From a virus (lineage: Duplodnaviria > Heunggongvirae > Uroviricota > Caudoviricetes): a stretch of 64,000 bases of DNA. The stretch lies in the IMG/VR virus record IMGVR_UViG_3300046543_000050, one strand, 5' to 3'. The notes beneath the pieces were generated by a model. The model worked only from the letters and a program-made list of their open reading frames with translations, did no database searches and was not told the origin of the DNA. This document shows positions 36,789 to 49,195 of the stretch, one piece after another. Within the stretch, counting starts at the first letter, position 1. Each line of letters opens with the position of its first letter. A program made the translations under genes and the position numbers.

Positions 36789-37892
36789 ATGTCCCAACAA
36801 TATGATGCAGTAGTTTATCGTGGCCGGTTCCAAGGCTTCCACGATGCGCACCTTTCAACGATCCTGTTGGCATTGGAACATGGCAAGAAGGTTATCGTGG
36901 TCATTGGCAGTGCTGGCGAACCGCGAACCTTCTACCGCAATCCGTTCTATGCAGTTGAGCGGATTGAAGTGATCAAGGAATCGTTAACCTTCAATCCCCG
37001 TCGAGATGACATTTCATTTGTCGAGATTGAAGACAATCCGTCCGATGAAGTATGGGCTGATAACGTAGTTGCATCAGTGAACCGCGAAGTTGGTCGTCTG
37101 TTCGAAGATACCAGCAAAGAAACTCGCGTCATCAGCTACAAGGTCGCGCAGATTGGCTTCAAGAAAGATGCAGACTGCGTTCGTGATGTCGCATTGTTCC
37201 CGGATTGGGAGTACATCAGCACTCCGCACTTCGTACCTGTAAACGGGACCGATGTCCGCGACATCCTGTTCAGTGATAAACCACTATCGTTCTTGCGCGG
37301 CGTCTGTCCGTCTGGGACCGTCGAATTCTTCGAACGCTTCCGTAAGACCATCGACTTTGCCGAACTGATGGCAGAGAAGAAGTACGTCGAGAACTATCGC
37401 AAAGCATTCGCCAGTCTGGAATATGAACCCACGTTCGTCACTGGCGACAACGTTGCGTTTCAAGACGACACGGTTCTTCTGGTGAAGCGCAAGAATCATC
37501 CGGGCAAGGGTCTGTGGGCGCTTCCGGCTGGTTACTTCAATGCCGCTGACCGTGTGACCAAGCGTGGTGAAGTCGTCAAGGCTGACAAGACCGTGTTCGA
37601 CTGTGCAGTCCGCGAACTATTCGAAGAAACCAAGGCCAACGTGACGAAGGAACAACTTCGTGATGCCGTGGTCGGTAACGCGGTATTCGAAGCTGAAGGA
37701 CGCGATCCGCGTGGCCGTATCGTGACCCATGTGTTCGTCTATAACTTCGATGGTCAAGAAGTGTTCGATGTTGAAGCCGCCGATGATGCGGACGAAGTTC
37801 GACGCTTCCACATCCGCGAAGTTCACCGTCGAATGATGTATGCCGATCACTACGACATCGTTCGTTGGGCGTACTCGCAGTACAAGAACTGA
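36789..37892 (+). CDS. natV: bifunctional NMN adenylyltransferase / Nudix hydrolase (NadM-Nudix, NatV-like)
   Basis: N-terminal nucleotidyltransferase motif VYRGRFQGFHDAHLS (HxxH-type); C-terminal Nudix box ELFEETK; adjacent to NAMPT. Confidence 0.8.
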   Translation: MSQQYDAVVYRGRFQGFHDAHLSTILLALEHGKKVIVVIGSAGEPRTFYRNPFYAVERIEVIKESLTFNPRRDDISFVEIEDNPSDEVWADNVVASVNREVGRLFEDTSKETRVISYKVAQIGFKKDADCVRDVALFPDWEYISTPHFVPVNGTDVRDILFSDKPLSFLRGVCPSGTVEFFERFRKTIDFAELMAEKKYVENYRKAFASLEYEPTFVTGDNVAFQDDTVLLVKRKNHPGKGLWALPAGYFNAADRVTKRGEVVKADKTVFDCAVRELFEETKANVTKEQLRDAVVGNAVFEAEGRDPRGRIVTHVFVYNFDGQEVFDVEAADDADEVRRFHIREVHRRMMYADHYDIVRWAYSQYKN

Positions 37893-37917
37893 ACAACTAC
37901 AGGAAACCAAGAGCAAC

Positions 37918-39273
37918 ATGTACTTTCAGAATATCCAACTAGAACAAAACTTCGTCCTTGAATCGGACTCCTACAAGTACTCGCACGTCCCGGAAGTCTA
38001 CCCGGAAGGCACTGAAGCATTGCACGCGTATCTGTCGGCGCGCGTGAAGGGTTCGCGTGTGGTGCAGTTCGGTCTTCAGATGTGGATCAAGAAGAAGCTA
38101 CTGGCCCCGATCACGCGTCGCATGGTCGATGAAGCCGAAGTATTCATGACGAAGCATATCGGTCCCGGTGGCTTCAACCGTGCGATGTGGGACCGCATCG
38201 TGAACTACTATGGCGGTTTCATTCCGCTGACGATCCGTGGTCTGCCCGAAGGTACGGTCACGGATAGCTACGATACGTTGGTCACGGTTGAGTGTGATGA
38301 TCCGGTTTGTTTCCCGCTGGCACAGTTCATCGAAGCTTCGTTGCAATCCGACCTCTGGTACAGCACGACCATCGCGACGAACGATCTGGAAAACTACGAA
38401 GTCGCCAAGTCGCATTTCAACTTGTTCTCCGATCAACCGTTCCTGTTGCCGTTCATGTTGCATGACTTCGGTGCGCGCGGCGTGACCTGTGAAGAACAAC
38501 GTCAGATCGGCGGCGCTGCGCACTTGGTGTTCTTCCAAGGTTCGGACACGATCAGCGGCATCCGTGCAGCGAATCTGTTCTACAACTGTGAGATGGCCGG
38601 TTACAGCGTCCGCGCGACCGAACATAGTATCCAGTGCGCCTACGGCCCCGAAGGGCAAGAAGCCTACATCCAACGCGTTCTGGATGCACATGCGAAGCCG
38701 GGTAACATCGTGTCGCTGGTGCTCGATGGCTACAACGTCTGGCGTGAGGCTGAACTGCTGTGTACGAAGTTCAAGCAACAGATCATCGATAGTGGCGCGA
38801 AGATCGTCTTCCGTCCTGATTCGGGCGACATGTTCGAAGTGGTTCCGCGTCTTCTGGAAATGCAAGCTGAAGCGTTCGGCTACACGGTGAACAGCAAGAA
38901 GAAAAAGGTCATCAACCATGTCGGCCTGATCCAAGGTGACGGCATCGACAAGACGACTTTCATGTTGATGATGCAGAAGGTTGTCTCGCTTGGCTATGCC
39001 CCTGAGTGCGTCGTCATGGGTTCTGGTGGCGGTCTGCTTCAGAAGGTCAACCGTGATACCCTGAAGTTCGCACAGAAGGCCGCTGCGATCAAGATCAATG
39101 GTAAGTGGATCGACGTGTTCAAAGACCCCATTACCGATCCGGGCAAGAAGTCGAAGACCGGTCTACAAGACGATCCGCGATTCGTGACCTTCTACACGGT
39201 TGACGAAGGTTTGATGGTCGATGAATCACTGGCGACGATTCGTGAACGTGCGTTGGCTGGCGCTGTGGTGTAA
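37918..39273 (+). CDS. nadV: nicotinamide phosphoribosyltransferase (NAMPT / NadV)
   Basis: NFVLESDSYKYSH N-terminal NAMPT motif; ~451 aa; follows the NMNAT gene. Confidence 0.8.
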   Translation: MYFQNIQLEQNFVLESDSYKYSHVPEVYPEGTEALHAYLSARVKGSRVVQFGLQMWIKKKLLAPITRRMVDEAEVFMTKHIGPGGFNRAMWDRIVNYYGGFIPLTIRGLPEGTVTDSYDTLVTVECDDPVCFPLAQFIEASLQSDLWYSTTIATNDLENYEVAKSHFNLFSDQPFLLPFMLHDFGARGVTCEEQRQIGGAAHLVFFQGSDTISGIRAANLFYNCEMAGYSVRATEHSIQCAYGPEGQEAYIQRVLDAHAKPGNIVSLVLDGYNVWREAELLCTKFKQQIIDSGAKIVFRPDSGDMFEVVPRLLEMQAEAFGYTVNSKKKKVINHVGLIQGDGIDKTTFMLMMQKVVSLGYAPECVVMGSGGGLLQKVNRDTLKFAQKAAAIKINGKWIDVFKDPITDPGKKSKTGLQDDPRFVTFYTVDEGLMVDESLATIRERALAGAVV

Positions 39274-41455: not shown

Positions 41456-42484
41456 GTGAAGAAATGGATTCTTGGTGTTCTGTTGTCCTTAGTAACGGTC
41501 ATGGCGTTCGCCCTGCCGTCCCCGCGTCAGATCGAAGACGCTCTCGCGAATGGTCGCTTCACAGAAGCCCAATCGATGGTGTCGCAAGTCCTCAGTGAAC
41601 GACCCGATTCCGCGCGTGCTCACCTGTTGAACGCGTACCTCTTGGTCCATGTGCAGCACGACAAGACAGCCGCGAACGCTGAACTCAATACGGCAGTCGG
41701 TCTTGACCAGAAAGGCGACGTGAAGAACAGTCCGCTGATGGGTCGAGTAGTCGGCGAGATTGACGCACAACCCGCCGCTGCGCCGCCCGCGAGACACCAG
41801 ACCGTGCAGAGTACCCCGGTGGTACAGCAAGCCGCTGTAAGCCCTGTGGTGCAGTATCAACCCGAGCAAAAGAGTGGTCATGGTTTCGCGATCTTCTCTG
41901 TCGTCTTGTTCTTCGGCGCTGTCGGTGTACTGGCCTACCTGTTGATCCGTGGCGCAAATCGTCGTGAAGGTGAACGTCTGGACCGGACTGCGTATAACCC
42001 GTACAGTTCGCCCCGACGCATTCAAAGTGCCCCGAGTGCATCGTTGCCGTACAACAGTGGCCCACAGCCGTCACCGTTTGATCCGTGGCTGACCACGCCG
42101 CCGCAAGTGATCCATCAAGCACAGCCGGTGATCGTGCAGCAAGCCCCGCAACAATCTTTTGGTAGTCAAGTCGCAGCAACGGCGACCGGTGTTGTCGCTG
42201 GTGAACTGATTCACGACGCAATTGTCGGTAGCCATCGACGTTCCCAAACGTGGGAAGAACCTGTGCGATCATATCGCGAACCGGTTCGGGAAACCGCGTA
42301 TCGTGACACTCCCGCGCCAGTTCGTGAAGAAAGCCCGGTGACGTATCAGAACGAACGTAGGTCGTTCAGTTCGGGTGACGATGATAGCTGGACGAAGCCC
42401 GCGCCGTCAGTGTTTTCCAGCGGTTCGGACGACAACAACACTTGGCAATCGGACCCGACGCCAAGCAACAATGATGGTTGGTGA
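41456..42484 (+). CDS. membrane protein: signal/TM, TPR-like helical region, internal TM, Pro/Gln-rich tail (342 aa, GTG start)
   Basis: RBS gaggaataag 8 nt before the GTG; hydrophobic segments at N-terminus and ~res 150. Confidence 0.5.
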   Translation: MKKWILGVLLSLVTVMAFALPSPRQIEDALANGRFTEAQSMVSQVLSERPDSARAHLLNAYLLVHVQHDKTAANAELNTAVGLDQKGDVKNSPLMGRVVGEIDAQPAAAPPARHQTVQSTPVVQQAAVSPVVQYQPEQKSGHGFAIFSVVLFFGAVGVLAYLLIRGANRREGERLDRTAYNPYSSPRRIQSAPSASLPYNSGPQPSPFDPWLTTPPQVIHQAQPVIVQQAPQQSFGSQVAATATGVVAGELIHDAIVGSHRRSQTWEEPVRSYREPVRETAYRDTPAPVREESPVTYQNERRSFSSGDDDSWTKPAPSVFSSGSDDNNTWQSDPTPSNNDGW

Positions 42485-42610
42485 TGGTTGGTAAAAAGAA
42501 CGTGTAGTCTTTTCACAAACTTGTAATTAGGTGTTGACCTCTAACTCGATTCAGCGTACAATTGCTTCTGTCGGTTGAGCAAACAACACCACTTCTGGGA
42601 GTATCCAAAC

Positions 42611-42862
42611 ATGCAGTTCCGCACTACCGAAGTTCATGGCATTTTCGTGTATGATATGTCCGAAGGTTTTGTTTGGTCCGAGAAGGTTAAGGACTATTAC
42701 AACAAGGGCGACGTGATCGACGTTGACTTTGACGTGGTGATCGAGACGCACTTCACAAGCGATTACCTCAACGGCAAGCTGGTTCCGGTGGACGACGAAG
42801 CGAAGGCATGGACGCTTCCCCTCTTGGAAATGACTCACGAAGTTGTTGCAGAAGTAATGTAA
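42611..42862 (+). CDS. hypothetical protein (83 aa)
   Basis: Promoter TTGACC 42531 / TACAAT; RBS ctgggagtat. Confidence 0.4.
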   Translation: MQFRTTEVHGIFVYDMSEGFVWSEKVKDYYNKGDVIDVDFDVVIETHFTSDYLNGKLVPVDDEAKAWTLPLLEMTHEVVAEVM

Positions 42863-42922
42863 ACACGCGTGGTGTAGTTGTAAAAGATTCATCCCTCCCA
42901 CGATGTATTGCCGGAAACAAAA

Positions 42923-43297
42923 ATGACAACACTCAATTTCACCCACACGCTGTCCGACTTCAACCGTTACAACATCGAAAACGGTGCTACCAGAATCGAC
43001 GTTCAGTACACGCTCGATGCAGTTGAAACAAATCGCATCATCGCTGACGCAGAAGATCAAATCCTGATCGGCAACCTGAAAGATCGCGGTTACGTAATCA
43101 TGACCGACGAAGATGCAGAAGGCTTGGATGCCGATGTCGAAGGTGGCGAGATTTTGCAAGACTTGTCGTATGGTCTGCTCGGTGCGATCAAGCAACAGAA
43201 CTCTGACCTCACCCTGAAGTTGCTGGAAGCCATCATCTTTGGCGCGACCGGCGAACAGATCGAACTCCGTACCGAAAACAAACTCAGTTTCGCATAA
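42923..43297 (+). CDS. hypothetical acidic protein (124 aa)
   Basis: ORF. Confidence 0.45.
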   Translation: MTTLNFTHTLSDFNRYNIENGATRIDVQYTLDAVETNRIIADAEDQILIGNLKDRGYVIMTDEDAEGLDADVEGGEILQDLSYGLLGAIKQQNSDLTLKLLEAIIFGATGEQIELRTENKLSFA

Positions 43298-43327
43298 CCC
43301 ATCAACAGAAGTAGAGAACTAAAACGC

Positions 43328-43630
43328 ATGTCGAATAACCTGATCAACAGTCCCGAAGCAAAGAAGCGTTTCAACAACAAGCTGTCGGAAATCTCGGCGT
43401 CCTTCACCCGCGTTGAAGCTGAACGCGATCTGGTGAAGACCATCGTCTCCGACCTCGCTGAAGAATTCCAGATCGACAAGAAGATCGTCAATCTGCTGGC
43501 CCGCACGTACCATAAGTCGGACTTCAAAGAGAAGGTCGCAGAGAAGACCGAATTCGAAATCATCTACGAAACCATTACCGGCGAAAGCCCGGAAACGGCT
43601 GACACGTACAACGGCGAAGACGGCGAATGA
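43328..43630 (+). CDS. hypothetical protein (100 aa)
   Basis: ORF. Confidence 0.45.
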   Translation: MSNNLINSPEAKKRFNNKLSEISASFTRVEAERDLVKTIVSDLAEEFQIDKKIVNLLARTYHKSDFKEKVAEKTEFEIIYETITGESPETADTYNGEDGE

Positions 43631-43866
43631 TTTACGCGACCGAACAAGAAGCGAATGCCGCGATCAGCGCGAAGCTTGAATTGGCGGAAGCGCTGATCGA
43701 AGATGCAAAAGACATCGCAGAAGCGAATGGTGTCGATTTTAGATTCGATCTGGCCTACGGCATGGGCGGTCGCTACATCCCGGCAGCGGAATACAACGAC
43801 ACATGGCACCCCGAACGAGATAGTAAAGAACGTGGCGGATGGTATCCGTCATCGCAAAGCTGCTGA
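43627..43866 (+). CDS. paralog family member 1 (79 aa); C-terminus ...GGWYPSSQSC
   Basis: N-terminal helix A..L..A..IEDAKDIAEANGVDF then acidic W-rich tail ending in Cys. Confidence 0.5.
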   Translation: MIYATEQEANAAISAKLELAEALIEDAKDIAEANGVDFRFDLAYGMGGRYIPAAEYNDTWHPERDSKERGGWYPSSQSC

Positions 43867-43896
43867 ACCACACGTAACTAACTGAGAACGACCAAC

Positions 43897-44244
43897 ATGC
43901 AAGTAACCCGCGAAGAAGCCCAAATTTTCCTGAACCTGATCGGTGACGGTGCAACTACCGATGGGACGATGGATGTCCTCTACAAGATCAACAAGGCATA
44001 TCCCGATGTGCTTCGTGGTACGAAGTATCCGGCCTTGATTCGCGATCATCAAGAGGCACGTCAGAAGGTCGTCAAGTCGGCGATGGCCCGGATCAGTGAA
44101 TTCATTGCTGATGCGAAGGCATCGGTGGCGAAGGCCGAAGAAGTCGCGAAGAAGGCGAACGTGGGTTTCTCGCTGTGCCTTGGTGATGAAGATGCATCCA
44201 GCTTCTTCGATCCGAAAGATGGTTGGTCGTCCTCGAACTGCTGA
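43897..44244 (+). CDS. paralog family member 2 (115 aa); C-terminus ...DGWSSSNC
   Basis: ...AEEVAKKANVGFSLCLGDEDASSFFDPKDGWSSSNC. Confidence 0.5.
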   Translation: MQVTREEAQIFLNLIGDGATTDGTMDVLYKINKAYPDVLRGTKYPALIRDHQEARQKVVKSAMARISEFIADAKASVAKAEEVAKKANVGFSLCLGDEDASSFFDPKDGWSSSNC

Positions 44245-44251
44245 GACAAAC

Positions 44252-44476
44252 ATGACTGAAATCACGAAAGAACAGAAACAAGAAGCGGTCAAGAAGGTTG
44301 ATGAACAGTTGAACATCGCGCGAACTGCGATCAAAGAAGCTGAACGTCTGGCAATCGAATTCAAGGTGGACTTCTCTTTCAGCGTCGGAGATGGTTACGG
44401 CGACTTCGAGACTAACGAAAGCCGCGATGGAACCGTTTACGGCGAGTGGTACGGTTGGCAAGGTAGCAACTGCTGA
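44252..44476 (+). CDS. paralog family member 3 (74 aa); C-terminus ...YGWQGSNC
   Basis: ...EAERLAIEFKVDFSFSVGDGYGDF...GEWYGWQGSNC. Confidence 0.5.
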   Translation: MTEITKEQKQEAVKKVDEQLNIARTAIKEAERLAIEFKVDFSFSVGDGYGDFETNESRDGTVYGEWYGWQGSNC

Positions 44477-44802
44477 TGGAAGCCAAGTTCCTCACTGAAC
44501 GCAAGAAGGCGATCAAAGAGATTGCCAAGCTTGCTGATGCAATCAAGGCCAACATCAAGTCTATCGAACGAATGGCCGATGAGTTTGGTGTCCGGGTTGA
44601 ACTTGAACTTCCGGCAACGGGTTACAACGGTGATGTCTGGTACAAGCCGCGACCGCCACAAGCATTGGAAGATCAGTACAACGACCCCGATGCCGAAGAC
44701 GTTCCTTATATCGGCGGTACGGATTGGGAATGGGACGCGTCAGCGGAAGAAGACAACGACGGACACAAGTACGGTTGGAAGAATAGTTCATCACACTGCT
44801 GA
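44476..44802 (+). CDS. paralog family member 4 (108 aa); C-terminus ...YGWKNSSSHC
   Basis: ...SIERMADEFGVRVELELPATGYNGDVWY...KYGWKNSSSHC. Confidence 0.5.
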   Translation: MEAKFLTERKKAIKEIAKLADAIKANIKSIERMADEFGVRVELELPATGYNGDVWYKPRPPQALEDQYNDPDAEDVPYIGGTDWEWDASAEEDNDGHKYGWKNSSSHC

Positions 44803-44814
44803 GAAATAAACGAC

Positions 44815-45744
44815 ATGATCATTATCGGCTCTAAAGCACTGGCAGCGCACGGCATTCAAACCGGTCGCAAATCATTCGACATCGACGTAGTTGGTGAGTA
44901 CGATGCAATCGTGGACTACGCCAAGAAGTATCATGGCAACATCCGCGCGTGCTATCCGATTTCGGGTGGCAACAAGCTGGTCGTGAAGACCGATAGGACG
45001 ATCATCGAAGGTGAACTGACGTGGGAAGGGTCAAGCGCTGCGAACCTCGCAGAACTGATCCTGAACGATCCCAAGACGCTTCATGCACGCGACTTCGTTG
45101 GTCACAAGTTCGCATCGCCCGATGTCGCGTACATGCTCAAGATGTCGCATCGATATTTGAAGGATTCTCCGCACTTCAAGAAGACGATGACCGACATCAA
45201 GTTGCTGCGTCAACATGGCGCGACTATTCGACCTGAGCATCAAGCATTCTATGAACAACGGATGAAGGACACCTACGTCTACAATCATCCGAAGTTGGAC
45301 CAGTCGAAGAAAGACTTCTTCAACGGTGATGGCGTGAAGTATGTCTATGATCACGACAGCATCCACGAAGCTGTCAAGCATCTGGCGAAGCCCGCGTACA
45401 ACTACTACAAGCCGGACGAGAACGATGTCTACTGCTCGAAGGACTTATTCTTCAAGGCCGCGAATGTCATCCGTCTGTTTGGTGGTCTGGAAGAAGCGTA
45501 TGTCCTCGCACTCGAACGGTCACAAATCCCGTTCGGTGACTTGTGGAGTCCGAAGCGATCCTTCGACTTCGCATTGATGAAGGTCTGCACGTCGATCACG
45601 TCAGGATGGTTCCGCGAGTACTGTTGGGAGAATTACGATTTGATTCAATCGATGTACGATGACAACTACGTCGAGAAGTTCTGGGCCAAGGTATCGGCTG
45701 GCGAAGTGAAACCCTACAACGTTGAGGAAGATGTCTACGCATGA
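44815..45744 (+). CDS. hypothetical protein with Pol-beta-type nucleotidyltransferase-like N-terminal motif (309 aa)
   Basis: IIGSKALAAHGIQTGRKSFDIDVVGE fits hG[GS]-x9-13-DxD; sits inside the paralog cluster. Confidence 0.5.
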   Translation: MIIIGSKALAAHGIQTGRKSFDIDVVGEYDAIVDYAKKYHGNIRACYPISGGNKLVVKTDRTIIEGELTWEGSSAANLAELILNDPKTLHARDFVGHKFASPDVAYMLKMSHRYLKDSPHFKKTMTDIKLLRQHGATIRPEHQAFYEQRMKDTYVYNHPKLDQSKKDFFNGDGVKYVYDHDSIHEAVKHLAKPAYNYYKPDENDVYCSKDLFFKAANVIRLFGGLEEAYVLALERSQIPFGDLWSPKRSFDFALMKVCTSITSGWFREYCWENYDLIQSMYDDNYVEKFWAKVSAGEVKPYNVEEDVYA

Positions 45745-46001
45745 TCGAGAAAGATAAAGAACTGGTCACAAAGACCATCTATGCGAAGTTGGCGCTCGCC
45801 GACGCACTGATGGCCGAATGCGTGATGCTGGCAGAAGAAAGCGGCGTGTGCTTCGAACTGCCGTGGGGTGGTGAAGGTACACAACAACGCGGCATGGGTG
45901 CAGGTTACGTTCCCGAGACTGCGAGCGATCAGGACAAAGAGTGGAACATCACGAACTACGATGATTCCACAGGCTGGCAACCTTCGGCTGGAAGTTGTTA
46001 A
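45741..46001 (+). CDS. paralog family member 5 (86 aa); C-terminus ...TGWQPSAGSC
   Basis: ...ECVMLAEESGVCFELPWGGEG...DDSTGWQPSAGSC. Confidence 0.5.
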   Translation: MIEKDKELVTKTIYAKLALADALMAECVMLAEESGVCFELPWGGEGTQQRGMGAGYVPETASDQDKEWNITNYDDSTGWQPSAGSC

Positions 46002-46007
46002 AGGTAG

Positions 46008-46040
46008 TTGACAAACATGGGAATTCGTGTAGAATTCCCA
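46008..46040 (+). promoter_or_regulatory. early promoter TTGACA-N16-TAGAAT with perfect inverted repeat TGGGAATTC-gtgta-GAATTCCCA
   Basis: Two inverted ATTCCCA half-sites; the right arm includes the -10. Confidence 0.6.
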
Positions 46041-46069: not shown

Positions 46070-46342
46070 ATGACCTACCAACTCGATACCAACGCCGACC
46101 ACATCACCAACGCTGGTGCTCGCGCTCTGATCGGTGGTCTGCGTGACAAGTTCTGTGGACTCAACAAGATGTACGGCGTCCGCTATGTTCGCGCGTTGGC
46201 CGAAGTTTGCAAGTACCAAGAGACGGACTTCTACACGTACCGGATGGGCCTGACGACGCGGAAGTTCCGGTCGCAGAAGGAAGCTGGCGTCTTCATGGAA
46301 AAGACGATCAACGATCTGTTCGAGTTTGGCATCCTGAAGTGA
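46070..46342 (+). CDS. hypothetical protein (90 aa)
   Basis: RBS ccggagattc. Confidence 0.45.
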   Translation: MTYQLDTNADHITNAGARALIGGLRDKFCGLNKMYGVRYVRALAEVCKYQETDFYTYRMGLTTRKFRSQKEAGVFMEKTINDLFEFGILK

Positions 46343-46789: not shown

Positions 46790-46849
46790 TTGGTGGCCGT
46801 TGGGCTACGAAGCCTAATAATTCTGTCAAACAGTAGCCCAAAGGACACC

Positions 46850-47728
46850 ATGAAAACCTTCCACGAACTCCGCAAGTACCTGAATGATCTGCCGATGGTG
46901 AGCGAAGAATTGCACCAGTCGATCCATGACGTTCTGGATTCGGAACACATCAAGCCCGAGCAAAAGCTGACGCACATCTCGCACGCGATCCGTGGTGCGC
47001 TCAAGCGGGGTGAAGATCATGGTCTGGAAGATGCGAAGCCCAAGAAGGGGTCCAGTCGGGCTGTGTTCTTCCCGAAGGAACCAACCAAGCTGAAGATCGA
47101 CGGGACCGATACGCACATGCCTACGGCCCTCAAAGTGGCATTCCCCGGCCAACTGGACAAGTACAAGAAGCATGACGAACCGTTGCTTGGTGAGGAACAG
47201 AATCGCGTTGAAGGCGATCACTTCACCAATCAGAACTATGGCGTACTGCGTCAGGGTGAACGTCATGGCGAGTACCATACGAACGAACACGGCTTCCTCG
47301 CGCCAATGCTGCACGCCCACGATGAAGGTCATCACATCCACTTTGGCAAGATCGAACCGATCAAGGCGGGCGACTTCAAGAAGCATACAGTCGCGCCCGG
47401 ATTCCCGAAGGGTATCAGTCATGACGAGATGTTCGACTACCTGAACCATCATCACGAAGAAGCGCACGGCAAGAAGCACTACGGCAAGACCAGTCCCGAA
47501 CGGATTGAACAACTCGAACAGCATCCGATGCTGGAAAACATGCATAGCTGGATGGGAAACACTGGCGCACATCCCGCCGATCTGAACAAGCGCAATATGG
47601 GCCTCTGGACGCATCCAGTGACCGGCAAGAAGCATGTCGTGGTGAGTGACTACGGCTACACAGGCGATGTCGCCAGACAGTACATGGAACGTCGCCAACG
47701 CATGACGAAGGCAATGAGGGGATACTGA
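46850..47728 (+). CDS. His-rich protein (292 aa; ~12% His, HxH/HHH clusters)
   Basis: Late-type CTAAATA at 46782; HAHDEGHHIHFG, NHHHEEAHGKKHYG. Confidence 0.55.
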   Translation: MKTFHELRKYLNDLPMVSEELHQSIHDVLDSEHIKPEQKLTHISHAIRGALKRGEDHGLEDAKPKKGSSRAVFFPKEPTKLKIDGTDTHMPTALKVAFPGQLDKYKKHDEPLLGEEQNRVEGDHFTNQNYGVLRQGERHGEYHTNEHGFLAPMLHAHDEGHHIHFGKIEPIKAGDFKKHTVAPGFPKGISHDEMFDYLNHHHEEAHGKKHYGKTSPERIEQLEQHPMLENMHSWMGNTGAHPADLNKRNMGLWTHPVTGKKHVVVSDYGYTGDVARQYMERRQRMTKAMRGY

Positions 47729-47758
47729 TGAAACGCGAAGGATGGGATGGATAAAGAA

Positions 47759-47785
47759 AGGCCGGTCGAAAGATCGGCCTTTTTG
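47759..47785 (+). terminator. rho-independent terminator with GAAA tetraloop + T-run
   Basis: AGGCCGGTC-gaaa-GATCGGCCT TTTT. Confidence 0.7.
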
Positions 47786-47796
47786 CATTCTGGGCC

Positions 47797-47825
47797 TTGA
47801 CAATGTATTCCCAAACCTGTATAAT
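47797..47825 (+). promoter_or_regulatory. class-A early promoter TTGACAatgtATTCCCAAACCTGTATAAT
   Basis: Followed by TCTTCACATACC and RBS cgggagcg. Confidence 0.65.
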
Positions 47826-47854
47826 TCTTCACATACCAACCGGGAGCGAACACC

Positions 47855-48109
47855 ATGACCACGACGAAGCTGACGAAGTATGATTACGCCGCGCAACTGG
47901 CCCTGTTTCTGGTCGAGAAGGTTGGTTCGATCTACGGTACGTGGGAAGGTCGGATGACGGCTGCTGAACAACGCGCACTGTTTGGGCGGTTCATCGGCAA
48001 GGGAAAGATCATCATCGACGGCGACAAGGAAGAAATTCATCAGCGCGTCAAGGTGTGCTTCGGCACCGACTACGACGACCGCGATTACGTCAACTGGAAA
48101 GACCTGTAA
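47855..48109 (+). CDS. hypothetical protein (84 aa)
   Basis: ORF after class-A promoter. Confidence 0.45.
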   Translation: MTTTKLTKYDYAAQLALFLVEKVGSIYGTWEGRMTAAEQRALFGRFIGKGKIIIDGDKEEIHQRVKVCFGTDYDDRDYVNWKDL

Positions 48110-48152
48110 AAGTAGCAGTACAATCATCCAACCAATCTCAGGAGTCTCACAC

Positions 48153-48407
48153 ATGAACAAAATCACCGACATCCAACGCGGTCGCGAACTGGTCGCGCGG
48201 AACCAACTGGTCGAAGCGGCAGCGATCAATCTGTTGCTCGCGATGGTCAATCCGCATCGACCGGGTGAGACGGTGCGGGCACGCGTCGAACGCACCAAGC
48301 AATTCCTGTTGGAACAGATCGTGGAAGCCGGATTCAGCGTCGAAGAAGCCGATGAACTGATCCGCGAAGCCCATGCGAAAGCATACGTCGAATTCATGAA
48401 GGTTTGA
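48153..48407 (+). CDS. hypothetical protein (84 aa)
   Basis: RBS caggagtctc. Confidence 0.45.
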   Translation: MNKITDIQRGRELVARNQLVEAAAINLLLAMVNPHRPGETVRARVERTKQFLLEQIVEAGFSVEEADELIREAHAKAYVEFMKV

Positions 48408-48436
48408 TTGACAAAGTAATCCCAAACCTGTATTAT
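48408..48436 (+). promoter_or_regulatory. class-A early promoter TTGACAaagtaATCCCAAACCTGTATTAT
   Basis: Followed by CTTCACATCGACAACG and RBS cacggagatt. Confidence 0.65.
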
Positions 48437-48469
48437 CTTCACATCGACAACGACCACGGAGATTCCAAC

Positions 48470-48985
48470 ATGAGCAACCAATTCAAACTGATCGACATCG
48501 CTACGGTTCGCAACAAGGCCAACGACGCCATCGGTCGCACCCGCAACCGTCTGGCAGTCTCGCGCAAGGTTCTGGATCGTATCCTGACCCTCTGCGATGG
48601 CAAGGTCATCAACCATCGAATCGTGAACAAGTTGGCGCTCGCGCTCCCGGACCTGAAGTTCTATCTGGACTCGAAACTCGGCTGGTATCAGTTGGAAATC
48701 GACGGACCCGGCTTCGACACGATTCGCGTGAATCTGGGCTACAAGAGCCAGACGACCGTGATCGACAAGGCGCTGGTCGAAGAAGGCTTCAATCCGTACC
48801 TGTTGGATGCCGAACGCATCGTCAAGTATGAAGAAGAAGTCAAGACCATCGAGGAACGTGCGAAGCGTTTCAACGATGCGCTGGTCGAACTGAAGTCGGC
48901 GTATGACGGTCTGGGCGACTTGCGGTTCGCATTCTCGGACAATCATCTCCCGTCCATCAAGGACGCCAACGACCGCTGGATTTAA
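48470..48985 (+). CDS. hypothetical protein (171 aa)
   Basis: ORF after class-A promoter. Confidence 0.5.
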   Translation: MSNQFKLIDIATVRNKANDAIGRTRNRLAVSRKVLDRILTLCDGKVINHRIVNKLALALPDLKFYLDSKLGWYQLEIDGPGFDTIRVNLGYKSQTTVIDKALVEEGFNPYLLDAERIVKYEEEVKTIEERAKRFNDALVELKSAYDGLGDLRFAFSDNHLPSIKDANDRWI

Positions 48986-48994
48986 GGGGACACG

Positions 48995-49195
48995 ATGAAC
49001 GCTCAAACTATCGAATACTTGGTTTACAAGGGTGGGGATTGGGTCAACTTACTCACCCTCAACTACCGGGATGGTATGCCAATTCCGGCGAAGTGGATGG
49101 TCCTCCATTACGAAGAAGTCAATTACGAAGTGACCAAGGTAGCGTTCAACATCAGTAACGCTGCAATCGAAGTAGAAGTCGCCAGATTAGCATGA
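48995..49195 (+). CDS. hypothetical protein (66 aa)
   Basis: RBS taagggga. Confidence 0.4.
   Translation: MNAQTIEYLVYKGGDWVNLLTLNYRDGMPIPAKWMVLHYEEVNYEVTKVAFNISNAAIEVEVARLA

Follow-up and report, generated by a model that had tools for sequence, protein, structure and literature searches.

Small Cys-ended phage proteins and a predicted Pol-beta-fold nucleotidyltransferase form a two-component cassette that appears to be confined to viruses

We analyzed a 64,000-nucleotide stretch of DNA from a tailed virus (IMG/VR record IMGVR_UViG_3300046543_000050), hereafter the window, in which five small genes encode proteins whose last residue is cysteine. Together with the gene for a predicted nucleotidyltransferase that lies among them, these genes make up a two-component cassette, apparently confined to viruses. 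On the basis of sequence and predicted structure, we tentatively favor a view in which the enzyme has the small proteins as its dedicated partners, and in which they would most likely serve as substrates recognized through their constant C-terminal tail; we regard this as a serious possibility rather than a probability. Below we present the linkage of the two families, describe each of them, and weigh the explanations that compete with the substrate role.

The first hints of linkage were a Cys-ended homologue just upstream of a gene with DUF7277 and DUF7275 domains (DUF, domain of unknown function) in Ralstonia phage RsoM2USA, Acinetobacter phage Acj9, and Pseudomonas phage psageK4e, and the same arrangement in two unrelated metagenomic contigs. 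We then examined the linkage from the side of the small proteins, using a DNA pattern back-translated from YGMGGTY that is blind to the enzyme. The pattern matched 73 IMG/VR stretches, 43 of which contained members of the small family. The enzyme lay downstream on the same strand in 32 of these 43 loci, and each of the other 11 stretches came to an end no more than 1.7 kb past the small gene. Thus, all assessable small-protein loci carried the enzyme (32/32), and the small family was never found alone. The 30 chance matches to the pattern served as a control, and none of them had the enzyme.

The reciprocal test started from 80 IMG/VR loci of the enzyme. Between one and six copies of the small family were found on the same strand, mostly upstream, in 66 of the 80 loci (one copy in 31 loci, two in 22, three in 6, four in 1, and six in 4). 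The 14 loci scored as negative included 3 that were cut and 7 in which divergent Cys-ended open reading frames (ORFs) adjoined the enzyme; one of these 7 had five divergent copies ending in FW[IV]PSSM[ES]C. To look for a third component, we clustered the ORFs that flank the enzyme gene on its own strand, up to 3.5 kb to each side, at 120 loci, which represented 90 lineages (<80% enzyme identity). Of these lineages, 76 had the small family and 14 had a related longer form of it; the two sets may overlap. The next commonest neighboring family occurred in only 10 lineages, and a third component conserved across the 90 lineages within this distance was rejected. Because the linkage held in both directions and no third family was conserved, we concluded that the small genes and the enzyme are a self-contained, near-obligate pair, and that this is the sole conserved linkage. 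The cassette travels as a unit among unrelated phage lineages.

In the window, the small genes are + strand ORFs that match the profile of PHROG 899. Gene p1 (43627–43866; 79 aa; E = 3e-16) encodes the canonical core AYGMGG-x-Y-x-P and ends in GGWYPSSQSC; its start overlaps the stop of dsbA, and public data contain a protein 97% identical to it. Gene p2 (43897–44244; 115 aa; E = 2e-3; ending DGWSSSNC) has an N-terminal extension and a short variant of the tail, and its product is identical to P0011, a protein called by the Joint Genome Institute (JGI). The short variant is also found in p3 (44252–44476; 74 aa; E = 2e-6; ending YGWQGSNC), whose ATG lies 7 nt past the p2 stop within a longer GTG-initiated ORF (44096–44476); P0004, identical to the 74-aa form, was called in three public contigs. 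Gene p4 (44476–44802; 108 aa; E = 2e-4; ending YGWKNSSSHC) has a long acidic linker and a start that overlaps the p3 stop. The predicted nucleotidyltransferase gene (44815–45744, + strand; 309 aa) starts 12 nt past p4. It is followed by p5 (45741–46001; 86 aa; E = 1e-4; ending TGWQPSAGSC), which represents a 'LPWGGEGT..RGMGAGY' subtype and shares an ATGA overlap with the enzyme stop. Independent gene callers gave the same series of 79, 115, 74, 108, [309], and 86 aa on identical public contigs. The genes of the cassette are thus tightly packed or overlapping, and are translationally coupled.

The sequence-only reading of the window had described the five small genes as a paralogous family. All five are present where it placed them, on the + strand, but what it treated as a gap between p4 and p5 holds the 309-aa gene of the same unit. 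Its claim of paralogy was borne out. All five proteins matched the PHROG 899 profile at about positions 141–221, which is its C-terminal part, and pairwise BLAST connected p1 with p5, p1 with p3, p2 with p3, and p3 with p4. A profile built from the five proteins recovered these five alone among the 1264 six-frame ORFs of the window. Cys was the last residue in 5/5, preceded by G-W plus one or two Ser, with the Trp either 7 residues earlier (p1, p4, and p5) or 5 residues earlier (p2 and p3); the background rate of Cys-ended ORFs in comparable phage loci was about 6%. The five also share the C-terminal tail, helix, and GMGG core that define the family, with the enzyme gene adjacent on the same strand. 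Hence the homology goes further than a similarity in composition, and we concluded that the five small proteins are true paralogs.

We found no DNA-level repeat among the five copies beyond short motif-coding stretches. A recent tandem duplication was rejected for this reason, and the duplications appear to be old. Recoding, or selenocysteine at the terminal Cys, was likewise rejected, given that the stop codons after the Cys are mixed both in the window (TGA in four copies, TAA in one) and family-wide (TAA in 76, TGA in 41, and TAG in 4). A megablast search of the region against deposited phages yielded no match, and scans of it with Rfam and for tRNAs were empty.

The architecture noticed in the window, an amphipathic helix followed by an acidic, aromatic tail and a terminal Cys, proved to be the hallmark of a large family. 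When 1.84 billion cluster representatives were searched exhaustively with an HMMER profile, 670 members were found at E ≤ 1e-3, of which 84 reached E ≤ 1e-10; in nearly all of the 670 the match extended to the last residue. Among the 150 best representatives, from which we took the motif statistics, 147 ended in Cys and 138 had a Trp exactly 7 residues earlier; the full tail was G(122)-W(138)-x-[S83/A34/P18]-S(142)-S(135)-x-x-C(147). The 5-residue spacing of p2 and p3 was found in 5 of 147 members. Upstream of the tail lie an amphipathic helix and a short hairpin (consensus ..A..LI.EAE.IADE.GV.F.F..AYGMGG.Y.P), and hairpin and tail are joined by a linker of 7–62 residues in which Glu, Asp, Ser, and Tyr are abundant. 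The median isoelectric point (pI) of the family is 4.4. Exactly one Cys was present in 76 of 150 members, and the unit W-x-S-S-x-C was repeated internally in 13 of 149.

Copies adjoining the enzyme ended in Cys in 121 of 134 cases; in several of the remaining copies the motif was followed by 1–4 further residues, as in about 7% of family members. There is therefore a strong, though not absolute, preference for Cys at the very end. The extra residues disfavor any chemistry that strictly needs a free carboxylate. An earlier suggestion, that the proteins are substrates for C-terminal modification, gains circumstantial support from the near-obligate linkage to a predicted nucleotidyltransferase. 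ThiS, MoaD, and ubiquitin-like carriers offered no parallel, as the small proteins end in Cys rather than Gly-Gly and their partner has a Pol-beta fold rather than an E1 fold.

Searches of Pfam, NCBIfam, and PADLOC gave no match to the small proteins, and thus placed them in no well-characterized family. The small-family profile matched only generic designed helical bundles among Protein Data Bank (PDB) sequences, and MenA1, an antitoxin discussed below, was among the chains without a match. The previously named phage members of PHROG 899 include RB69 ORF136c/137c, phAPEC8 gp188/190/191, Acj9p078, psageK4e_160, and RsoM2USA_119/120. These belong to the same family as the window proteins and have the same tail and the same neighbor, but come without a described function. 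The remark that no T4 family has this terminus was right for T4 itself; the family is nonetheless present in the T-even relative RB69 and had been clustered as PHROG 899.

The second component belongs to a family with at least 2623 homologues at E ≤ 1e-10. Pfam assigned DUF7277 to residues 1–81 of the window protein, which form the catalytic head, and DUF7275 to residues 105–285, which form a helical domain. In a 79-sequence alignment, G5 and D22 were invariant, and S6, D24, and E65 were present in at least 90% of members. These residues make up the hG[GS]...DxD...E signature of the Pol-beta superfamily, with a spacing of 15 residues from G-S to D-x-D. The helical domain was very strongly conserved as well, for example in KMSHRYLKNSPHF, YDHDSIHE, and CTSITSGWFRE. 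A structure predicted from the same alignment (predicted local distance difference test score, pLDDT, 92.8; predicted template modeling score, pTM, 0.87) contained the alpha-beta-alpha-beta-alpha-beta core fold of Pol-beta enzymes. Judged by these residues and this fold, the predicted nucleotidyltransferase looks active and is apparently catalytically competent.

The best solved structural matches of the enzyme were all nucleotidyltransferases: MenT1, MenT3/TglT, and MenT4, and also ANT(2'')/LnuA, with CCA-adding enzymes as weaker matches. The similarity spanned about 135–150 residues. A search of PDB sequences with the enzyme gave no match, and the DUF7275 domain had no informative structural match. 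In a viral structure library, the matches were other DUF7275 proteins, including longer forms of 508–571 aa from the giant viruses Sylvanvirus (BFVD A0A3G5AJ90) and Satyrvirus (A0A3G5AE53). Because giant eukaryotic viruses encode DUF7275, the enzyme family is not confined to phages.

The structural matches raise the possibility that the enzyme is a MenT-like nucleotidyltransferase acting on the 3' ends of RNA or tRNA, in an attack on host tRNA or in the phage's own repair, and that the small acidic proteins would inhibit its active site or time its action, as antitoxins do. MenT proteins are the best structural matches, and in both systems a short protein is encoded upstream of the nucleotidyltransferase. 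The 68-aa antitoxin MenA1, encoded upstream of MenT1, blocks the active sites of MenT1 with a helix (PMC10435456). The small phage genes are mostly upstream and translationally coupled, and a median pI of 4.4 would suit a nucleic-acid groove. Nevertheless, we consider an antitoxin role unlikely. One to six diversified copies per enzyme would be unusual for an antitoxin, the bodies of copies 1–4 diverge far faster than the enzyme that they would have to fit, and the enzyme is not basic overall (pI about 6.3). Unlike MenA1, the small proteins are multi-copy and have the invariant W-x-x-S-S-x-x-C tail, and they show no sequence match to MenA1. The enzyme in turn resembles MenT/AbiEii toxins at the level of the fold only: the AbiEii/DUF1814 model (PF08843) was matched by just 1 of 79 enzyme members (E = 0.06), PADLOC gave no match for the cassette, and the carriers are lytic phages as opposed to bacterial chromosomes.

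RNA repair enzymes were considered in the same way. Like RlaP and CCA-adding enzymes, the window protein is a phage-borne predicted Pol-beta nucleotidyltransferase, and a T4-type RNA ligase lies near the cassette in one locus (L004). That unrelated contig (L004:1699–2871) also encodes an AAA_33 kinase-like protein, UvdE, and ClpP within 4 kb of the cassette. However, membership in the RlaP family was rejected, as the enzyme had no PF10127 match at E ≤ 1 and the RNA ligase was not a conserved neighbor of the cassette overall. The literature on RlaP, a phage nucleotidyltransferase of RNA repair, makes no mention of small Cys-ended partners (PMC7824862; PMC12776372).

Our preferred reading, that the small proteins are substrates, was favored on four grounds. 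The small family was never without the enzyme in assessable loci, and one enzyme can have as many as six partners. The bodies of the partners diverge much faster than the enzyme, as would be expected of a constant handle joined to a variable, host-facing head. Finally, there are established cases in which a Pol-beta-fold enzyme nucleotidylylates a small protein that is adjacent or cognate to it, as in MNT-HEPN and GlnD-PII. In HEPN-MNT, a type VII toxin-antitoxin system, a Pol-beta-fold MNT encoded beside a small HEPN partner covalently (oligo)AMPylates that partner on Tyr. GlnD uridylylates PII on Tyr, and in the pairs GlnD/PII and GlnE/glutamine synthetase a Pol-beta-fold enzyme with extra helical domains transfers a nucleoside monophosphate to a hydroxyl of a small protein substrate. 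For the pairing of a small protein with a nucleotidyltransferase of the MenT type, MenA1/MenT1 also sets a precedent (PMC10435456).

The parallel to HEPN-MNT lies in the organization of the cassette, which likewise consists of two genes, with a Pol-beta-fold nucleotidyltransferase beside a small partner and no other conserved component. In contrast to HEPN proteins, the small phage proteins have no R-x4-6-H motif and no Pfam or PADLOC match to HEPN, and are built as helix, hairpin, and disordered tail; they do not qualify as HEPN proteins. The phage enzyme also differs from MNT in being a 309-aa protein with a large DUF7275 domain rather than a minimal nucleotidyltransferase, and the cassette is viral with 1–6 partners. 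Compared with GlnD and GlnE, the phage enzyme shows no sequence match or specific structural match, and such adjacency of the genes is absent from the GlnD/GlnE systems.

Under the substrate reading, each small protein would have three parts: the helix and hairpin, a disordered acidic linker of Asp, Glu, Ser, and Tyr, and the constant tail G-W-x-[S/A/P]-S-S-x-x-Cys. The tail would be the handle recognized by the highly conserved enzyme, which would most likely use a nucleoside triphosphate (NTP) or a donor linked to a nucleoside diphosphate (NDP) to modify a hydroxyl of its partner. Candidate acceptors are the invariant Ser-Ser dyad and the conserved Tyr of the YGMGG.Y loop, and the modification would be akin to that of MNT on HEPN or GlnD on PII. 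The fast-diverging paralogs would then be alternative substrates, whose variable bodies may address different targets, probably of the host, early in infection. Possible as well, though doubtful, is a viral protein-modification system that has so far gone unrecognized, in which the dedicated nucleotidyltransferase would install a nucleotide, oligonucleotide, or phospho-linked group on the W-x-x-S-S-x-x-Cys tail of the fast-evolving small acidic proteins, or would exploit this activation to cyclize the tail. The resulting protein-nucleotide conjugates would act early in infection against host immunity or the RNA metabolism of the host, as decoys or as inhibitors.

Several observations weigh against a substrate role. 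To our knowledge, the protein-modifying Pol-beta enzymes that have been described target Tyr and not Ser. The invariant, nearly always terminal Cys is unexplained by the substrate model, and the rival models likewise leave it unexplained. The shorter tail W-x-x-S-x-C of p2 and p3 means that one enzyme must accept two spacings. Sequence matches of the enzyme to nucleotidyltransferase families in Pfam were marginal, and no partner was found at enzyme loci L124, L131, and L155/L159. In addition, the small family that accompanies distant, shorter homologues of the enzyme in phages of Gordonia, Streptomyces, and Vibrio is a different one.

These distant homologues, of about 250–260 aa, are encoded by Gordonia phage Abscondus (gp15–17; L169), Streptomyces phage Blueeyedbeauty (gp205–207; L170), and Vibrio phage K412 (0176–0174; L171). 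None of the three loci has Cys-ended neighbors; in each, the enzyme gene is instead followed by one or two copies of another acidic, aromatic-rich small family, whose motif is GGEGQG..W.VF.I.D..F.K.G.Y.S[WY].G..[WY]DG...EV.P.EKT. Pairing with small acidic proteins may be a more general trait of the enzyme family.

We next compared the window with its closest relatives. It is derived from a T4-like phage; among its products are UvsX, a gp41-like helicase, ribonucleotide reductase, NAMPT (nicotinamide phosphoribosyltransferase) with an NMNAT-Nudix protein, DNA ligase, and DsbA. In a comparison with the closest relative (L081), identity was 96% for DsbA, 84% for the enzyme, and 88% for p5, the most conserved of the small copies, but only 43–58% for p1–p4. 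All copies kept the tail despite the divergence of p1–p4. The ratio of nonsynonymous to synonymous substitution rates (dN/dS) was below 1 throughout this comparison, in which dS was saturated. The fast divergence of copies 1–4 relative to their neighbors fits the other earlier suggestion, that the proteins are a diversified binding module. Copy number also varies among related phages, as that reading had proposed to examine: the window has five copies, whereas its closest relatives (L081, L082, L083, and L085) have six, of which one follows the enzyme and five are upstream. The copy that the window lacks (ending ..GGWYSSHC) immediately precedes the enzyme; the corresponding position of the window holds only the 12-nt spacer.

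A consensus scan of the + strand placed a candidate sigma-70-type promoter (TTGACC-17-TACAAT) at 42534–42562, and this site could drive the tightly packed + strand run from 42575 to 46001; no stronger promoter-like site was found on this strand between it and the cassette. A second promoter-like site (TTGACA-16-TAGAAT; 46008–46035, + strand) probably starts the next transcription unit and would mark the 3' edge of the cassette. In public gene calls, the next gene lies at window position 46070. The T4 late-promoter motif TATAAATA was absent from the window. The presence of sigma-70-like promoters and the absence of a late motif suggest early expression of the cassette.

Divergence and expression also bear on an explanation in which the small proteins act independently of the enzyme, as stand-alone binders of host targets, for example nucleic-acid mimics or anti-defense decoys. 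The tail would then bind a metal or cofactor or link an oligomer through disulfides, and the enzyme would be co-inherited for the same counter-defense task. The linkers are acidic, disordered, and rich in Tyr and Trp, divergence is rapid, as it is in arms-race proteins, the setting of the promoters looks early, and an invariant thiol near a free carboxylate would be a plausible metal ligand. We nevertheless judged this explanation to be quite improbable. The enzyme accompanies the small family in 32 of 32 assessable loci, and co-function alone rarely gives such adjacency across T4-like, Otagovirus, phAPEC8-like, and jumbo phages. Furthermore, most members have one Cys (exactly one in 76/150), so that a metal site would need oligomers.

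The composition of the tail suggested one further explanation, a maturation like that of ribosomally synthesized and post-translationally modified peptides (RiPPs). A tail Ser would be activated and eliminated, and the Cys would close a thioether ring (lanthionine-like or aminovinyl-cysteine-like, AviCys) or a Trp-Cys crosslink, giving a cyclized C-terminal peptide. The Ser-Ser...Cys spacing resembles lanthipeptide ring motifs, and the W-x-S-S-x-C unit is repeated internally in 13 of 149 members. By analogy with class II–IV lanthipeptide chemistry, a Ser hydroxyl could conceivably be activated by nucleotidylylation or phospho-transfer ahead of elimination. Against this, the enzymes by which precursors would be recognized (LanB/LanM/LanKC, LanD, radical S-adenosylmethionine enzymes, or a cyclase) were not conserved within 3.5 kb across the 90 lineages, and there was no protease or exporter. 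The proteins also exceed typical precursors considerably in length, their folded N-terminal part is conserved, and the residues past the Cys in some members argue against decarboxylation of the AviCys type. Such maturation is very improbable. Both it and independent action are made less likely by the strictness of the linkage and by the lack of any other conserved enzyme.

Other features of the window and of related loci were noted. At 36789–39273, the window encodes an NMNAT-like cytidylyltransferase-Nudix fusion (367 aa) and then a nicotinamide phosphoribosyltransferase (477 aa), a pair for NAD salvage or reconstitution. In Acj9 and Vibrio phage K412, genes like those for phosphoribosyl pyrophosphate (PRPP) synthetase and NAMPT lie within a few kb of the cassettes. 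The 342-aa protein encoded at 41456–42484 has an N-terminal signal or transmembrane segment, a stretch like tetratricopeptide repeats (TPR), a second hydrophobic segment, and a long Pro/Gln/Ser-rich tail ending in ..NNDGW; its counterpart in the relatives is a 354-aa protein annotated as DUF2076. A 726-aa ORF on the – strand (46826–49006) is almost certainly spurious, being antisense to + strand genes that have promoters and homologues.

The enzyme is encoded in 734 deposited phage genomes, with hosts that include Escherichia, Acinetobacter, Aeromonas, Pseudomonas, Vibrio, Enterobacter, and Klebsiella. We found the cassette in RB69, phAPEC8, Acj9, Otagovirus, and jumbo phages. In phAPEC8, gp188, gp190, and gp191 are the small proteins and gp192 is the enzyme. 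In RB69, the cassette lies between the homologues of e.3 and e.2; ORF134c is the enzyme, and ORF137c and ORF136c end in GGWVASSHTC and QGWVSSSYSC, respectively. The N-terminal helix and core of the family are found in RB69 ORF139c, and an ending ..GAWVSSPALC comes from the overlapping ORF138c (L167:2372–2678). Together the two look like one copy broken by a frameshift, which would make it a pseudogene or else a frameshifted gene. The RB69ORF names of these genes, flanked by genes labeled 'similar to T4', suggest that T4 is without the cassette. A scan of bacteria and archaea with one genome per species gave six matches only, all in metagenome-assembled or uncultured genomes, and one of the six lay on a contig of 167 kb, as long as the genome of a T4-like phage. 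The cassette thus looks largely virus-restricted, the six cellular-labeled contigs being of unchecked origin.

In the literature, we found no paper on the small family, the enzyme, their association, or the tail motif. What was already known is the small family as an unannotated PHROG and the enzyme as two Pfam DUFs; the function of the cassette is undescribed in the literature that we found, and there is a real chance that its chemistry is new. The cassette is common, with 670 small-family representatives, at least 2623 enzyme proteins, and 734 deposited phage genomes in which the enzyme is encoded. RB69 and phAPEC8-like coliphages are tractable carriers, and the RB69 genes make the cassette directly testable in E. 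coli. If the enzyme modifies the tails, or is controlled by them, the two families would constitute a new enzyme-partner pair in the early biology of phages, and would explain a block of 'hypothetical' genes that recurs in T4-like, Otagovirus, and jumbo phages. The combination of a constant handle and a variable body would then be a modular arsenal aimed at host targets.

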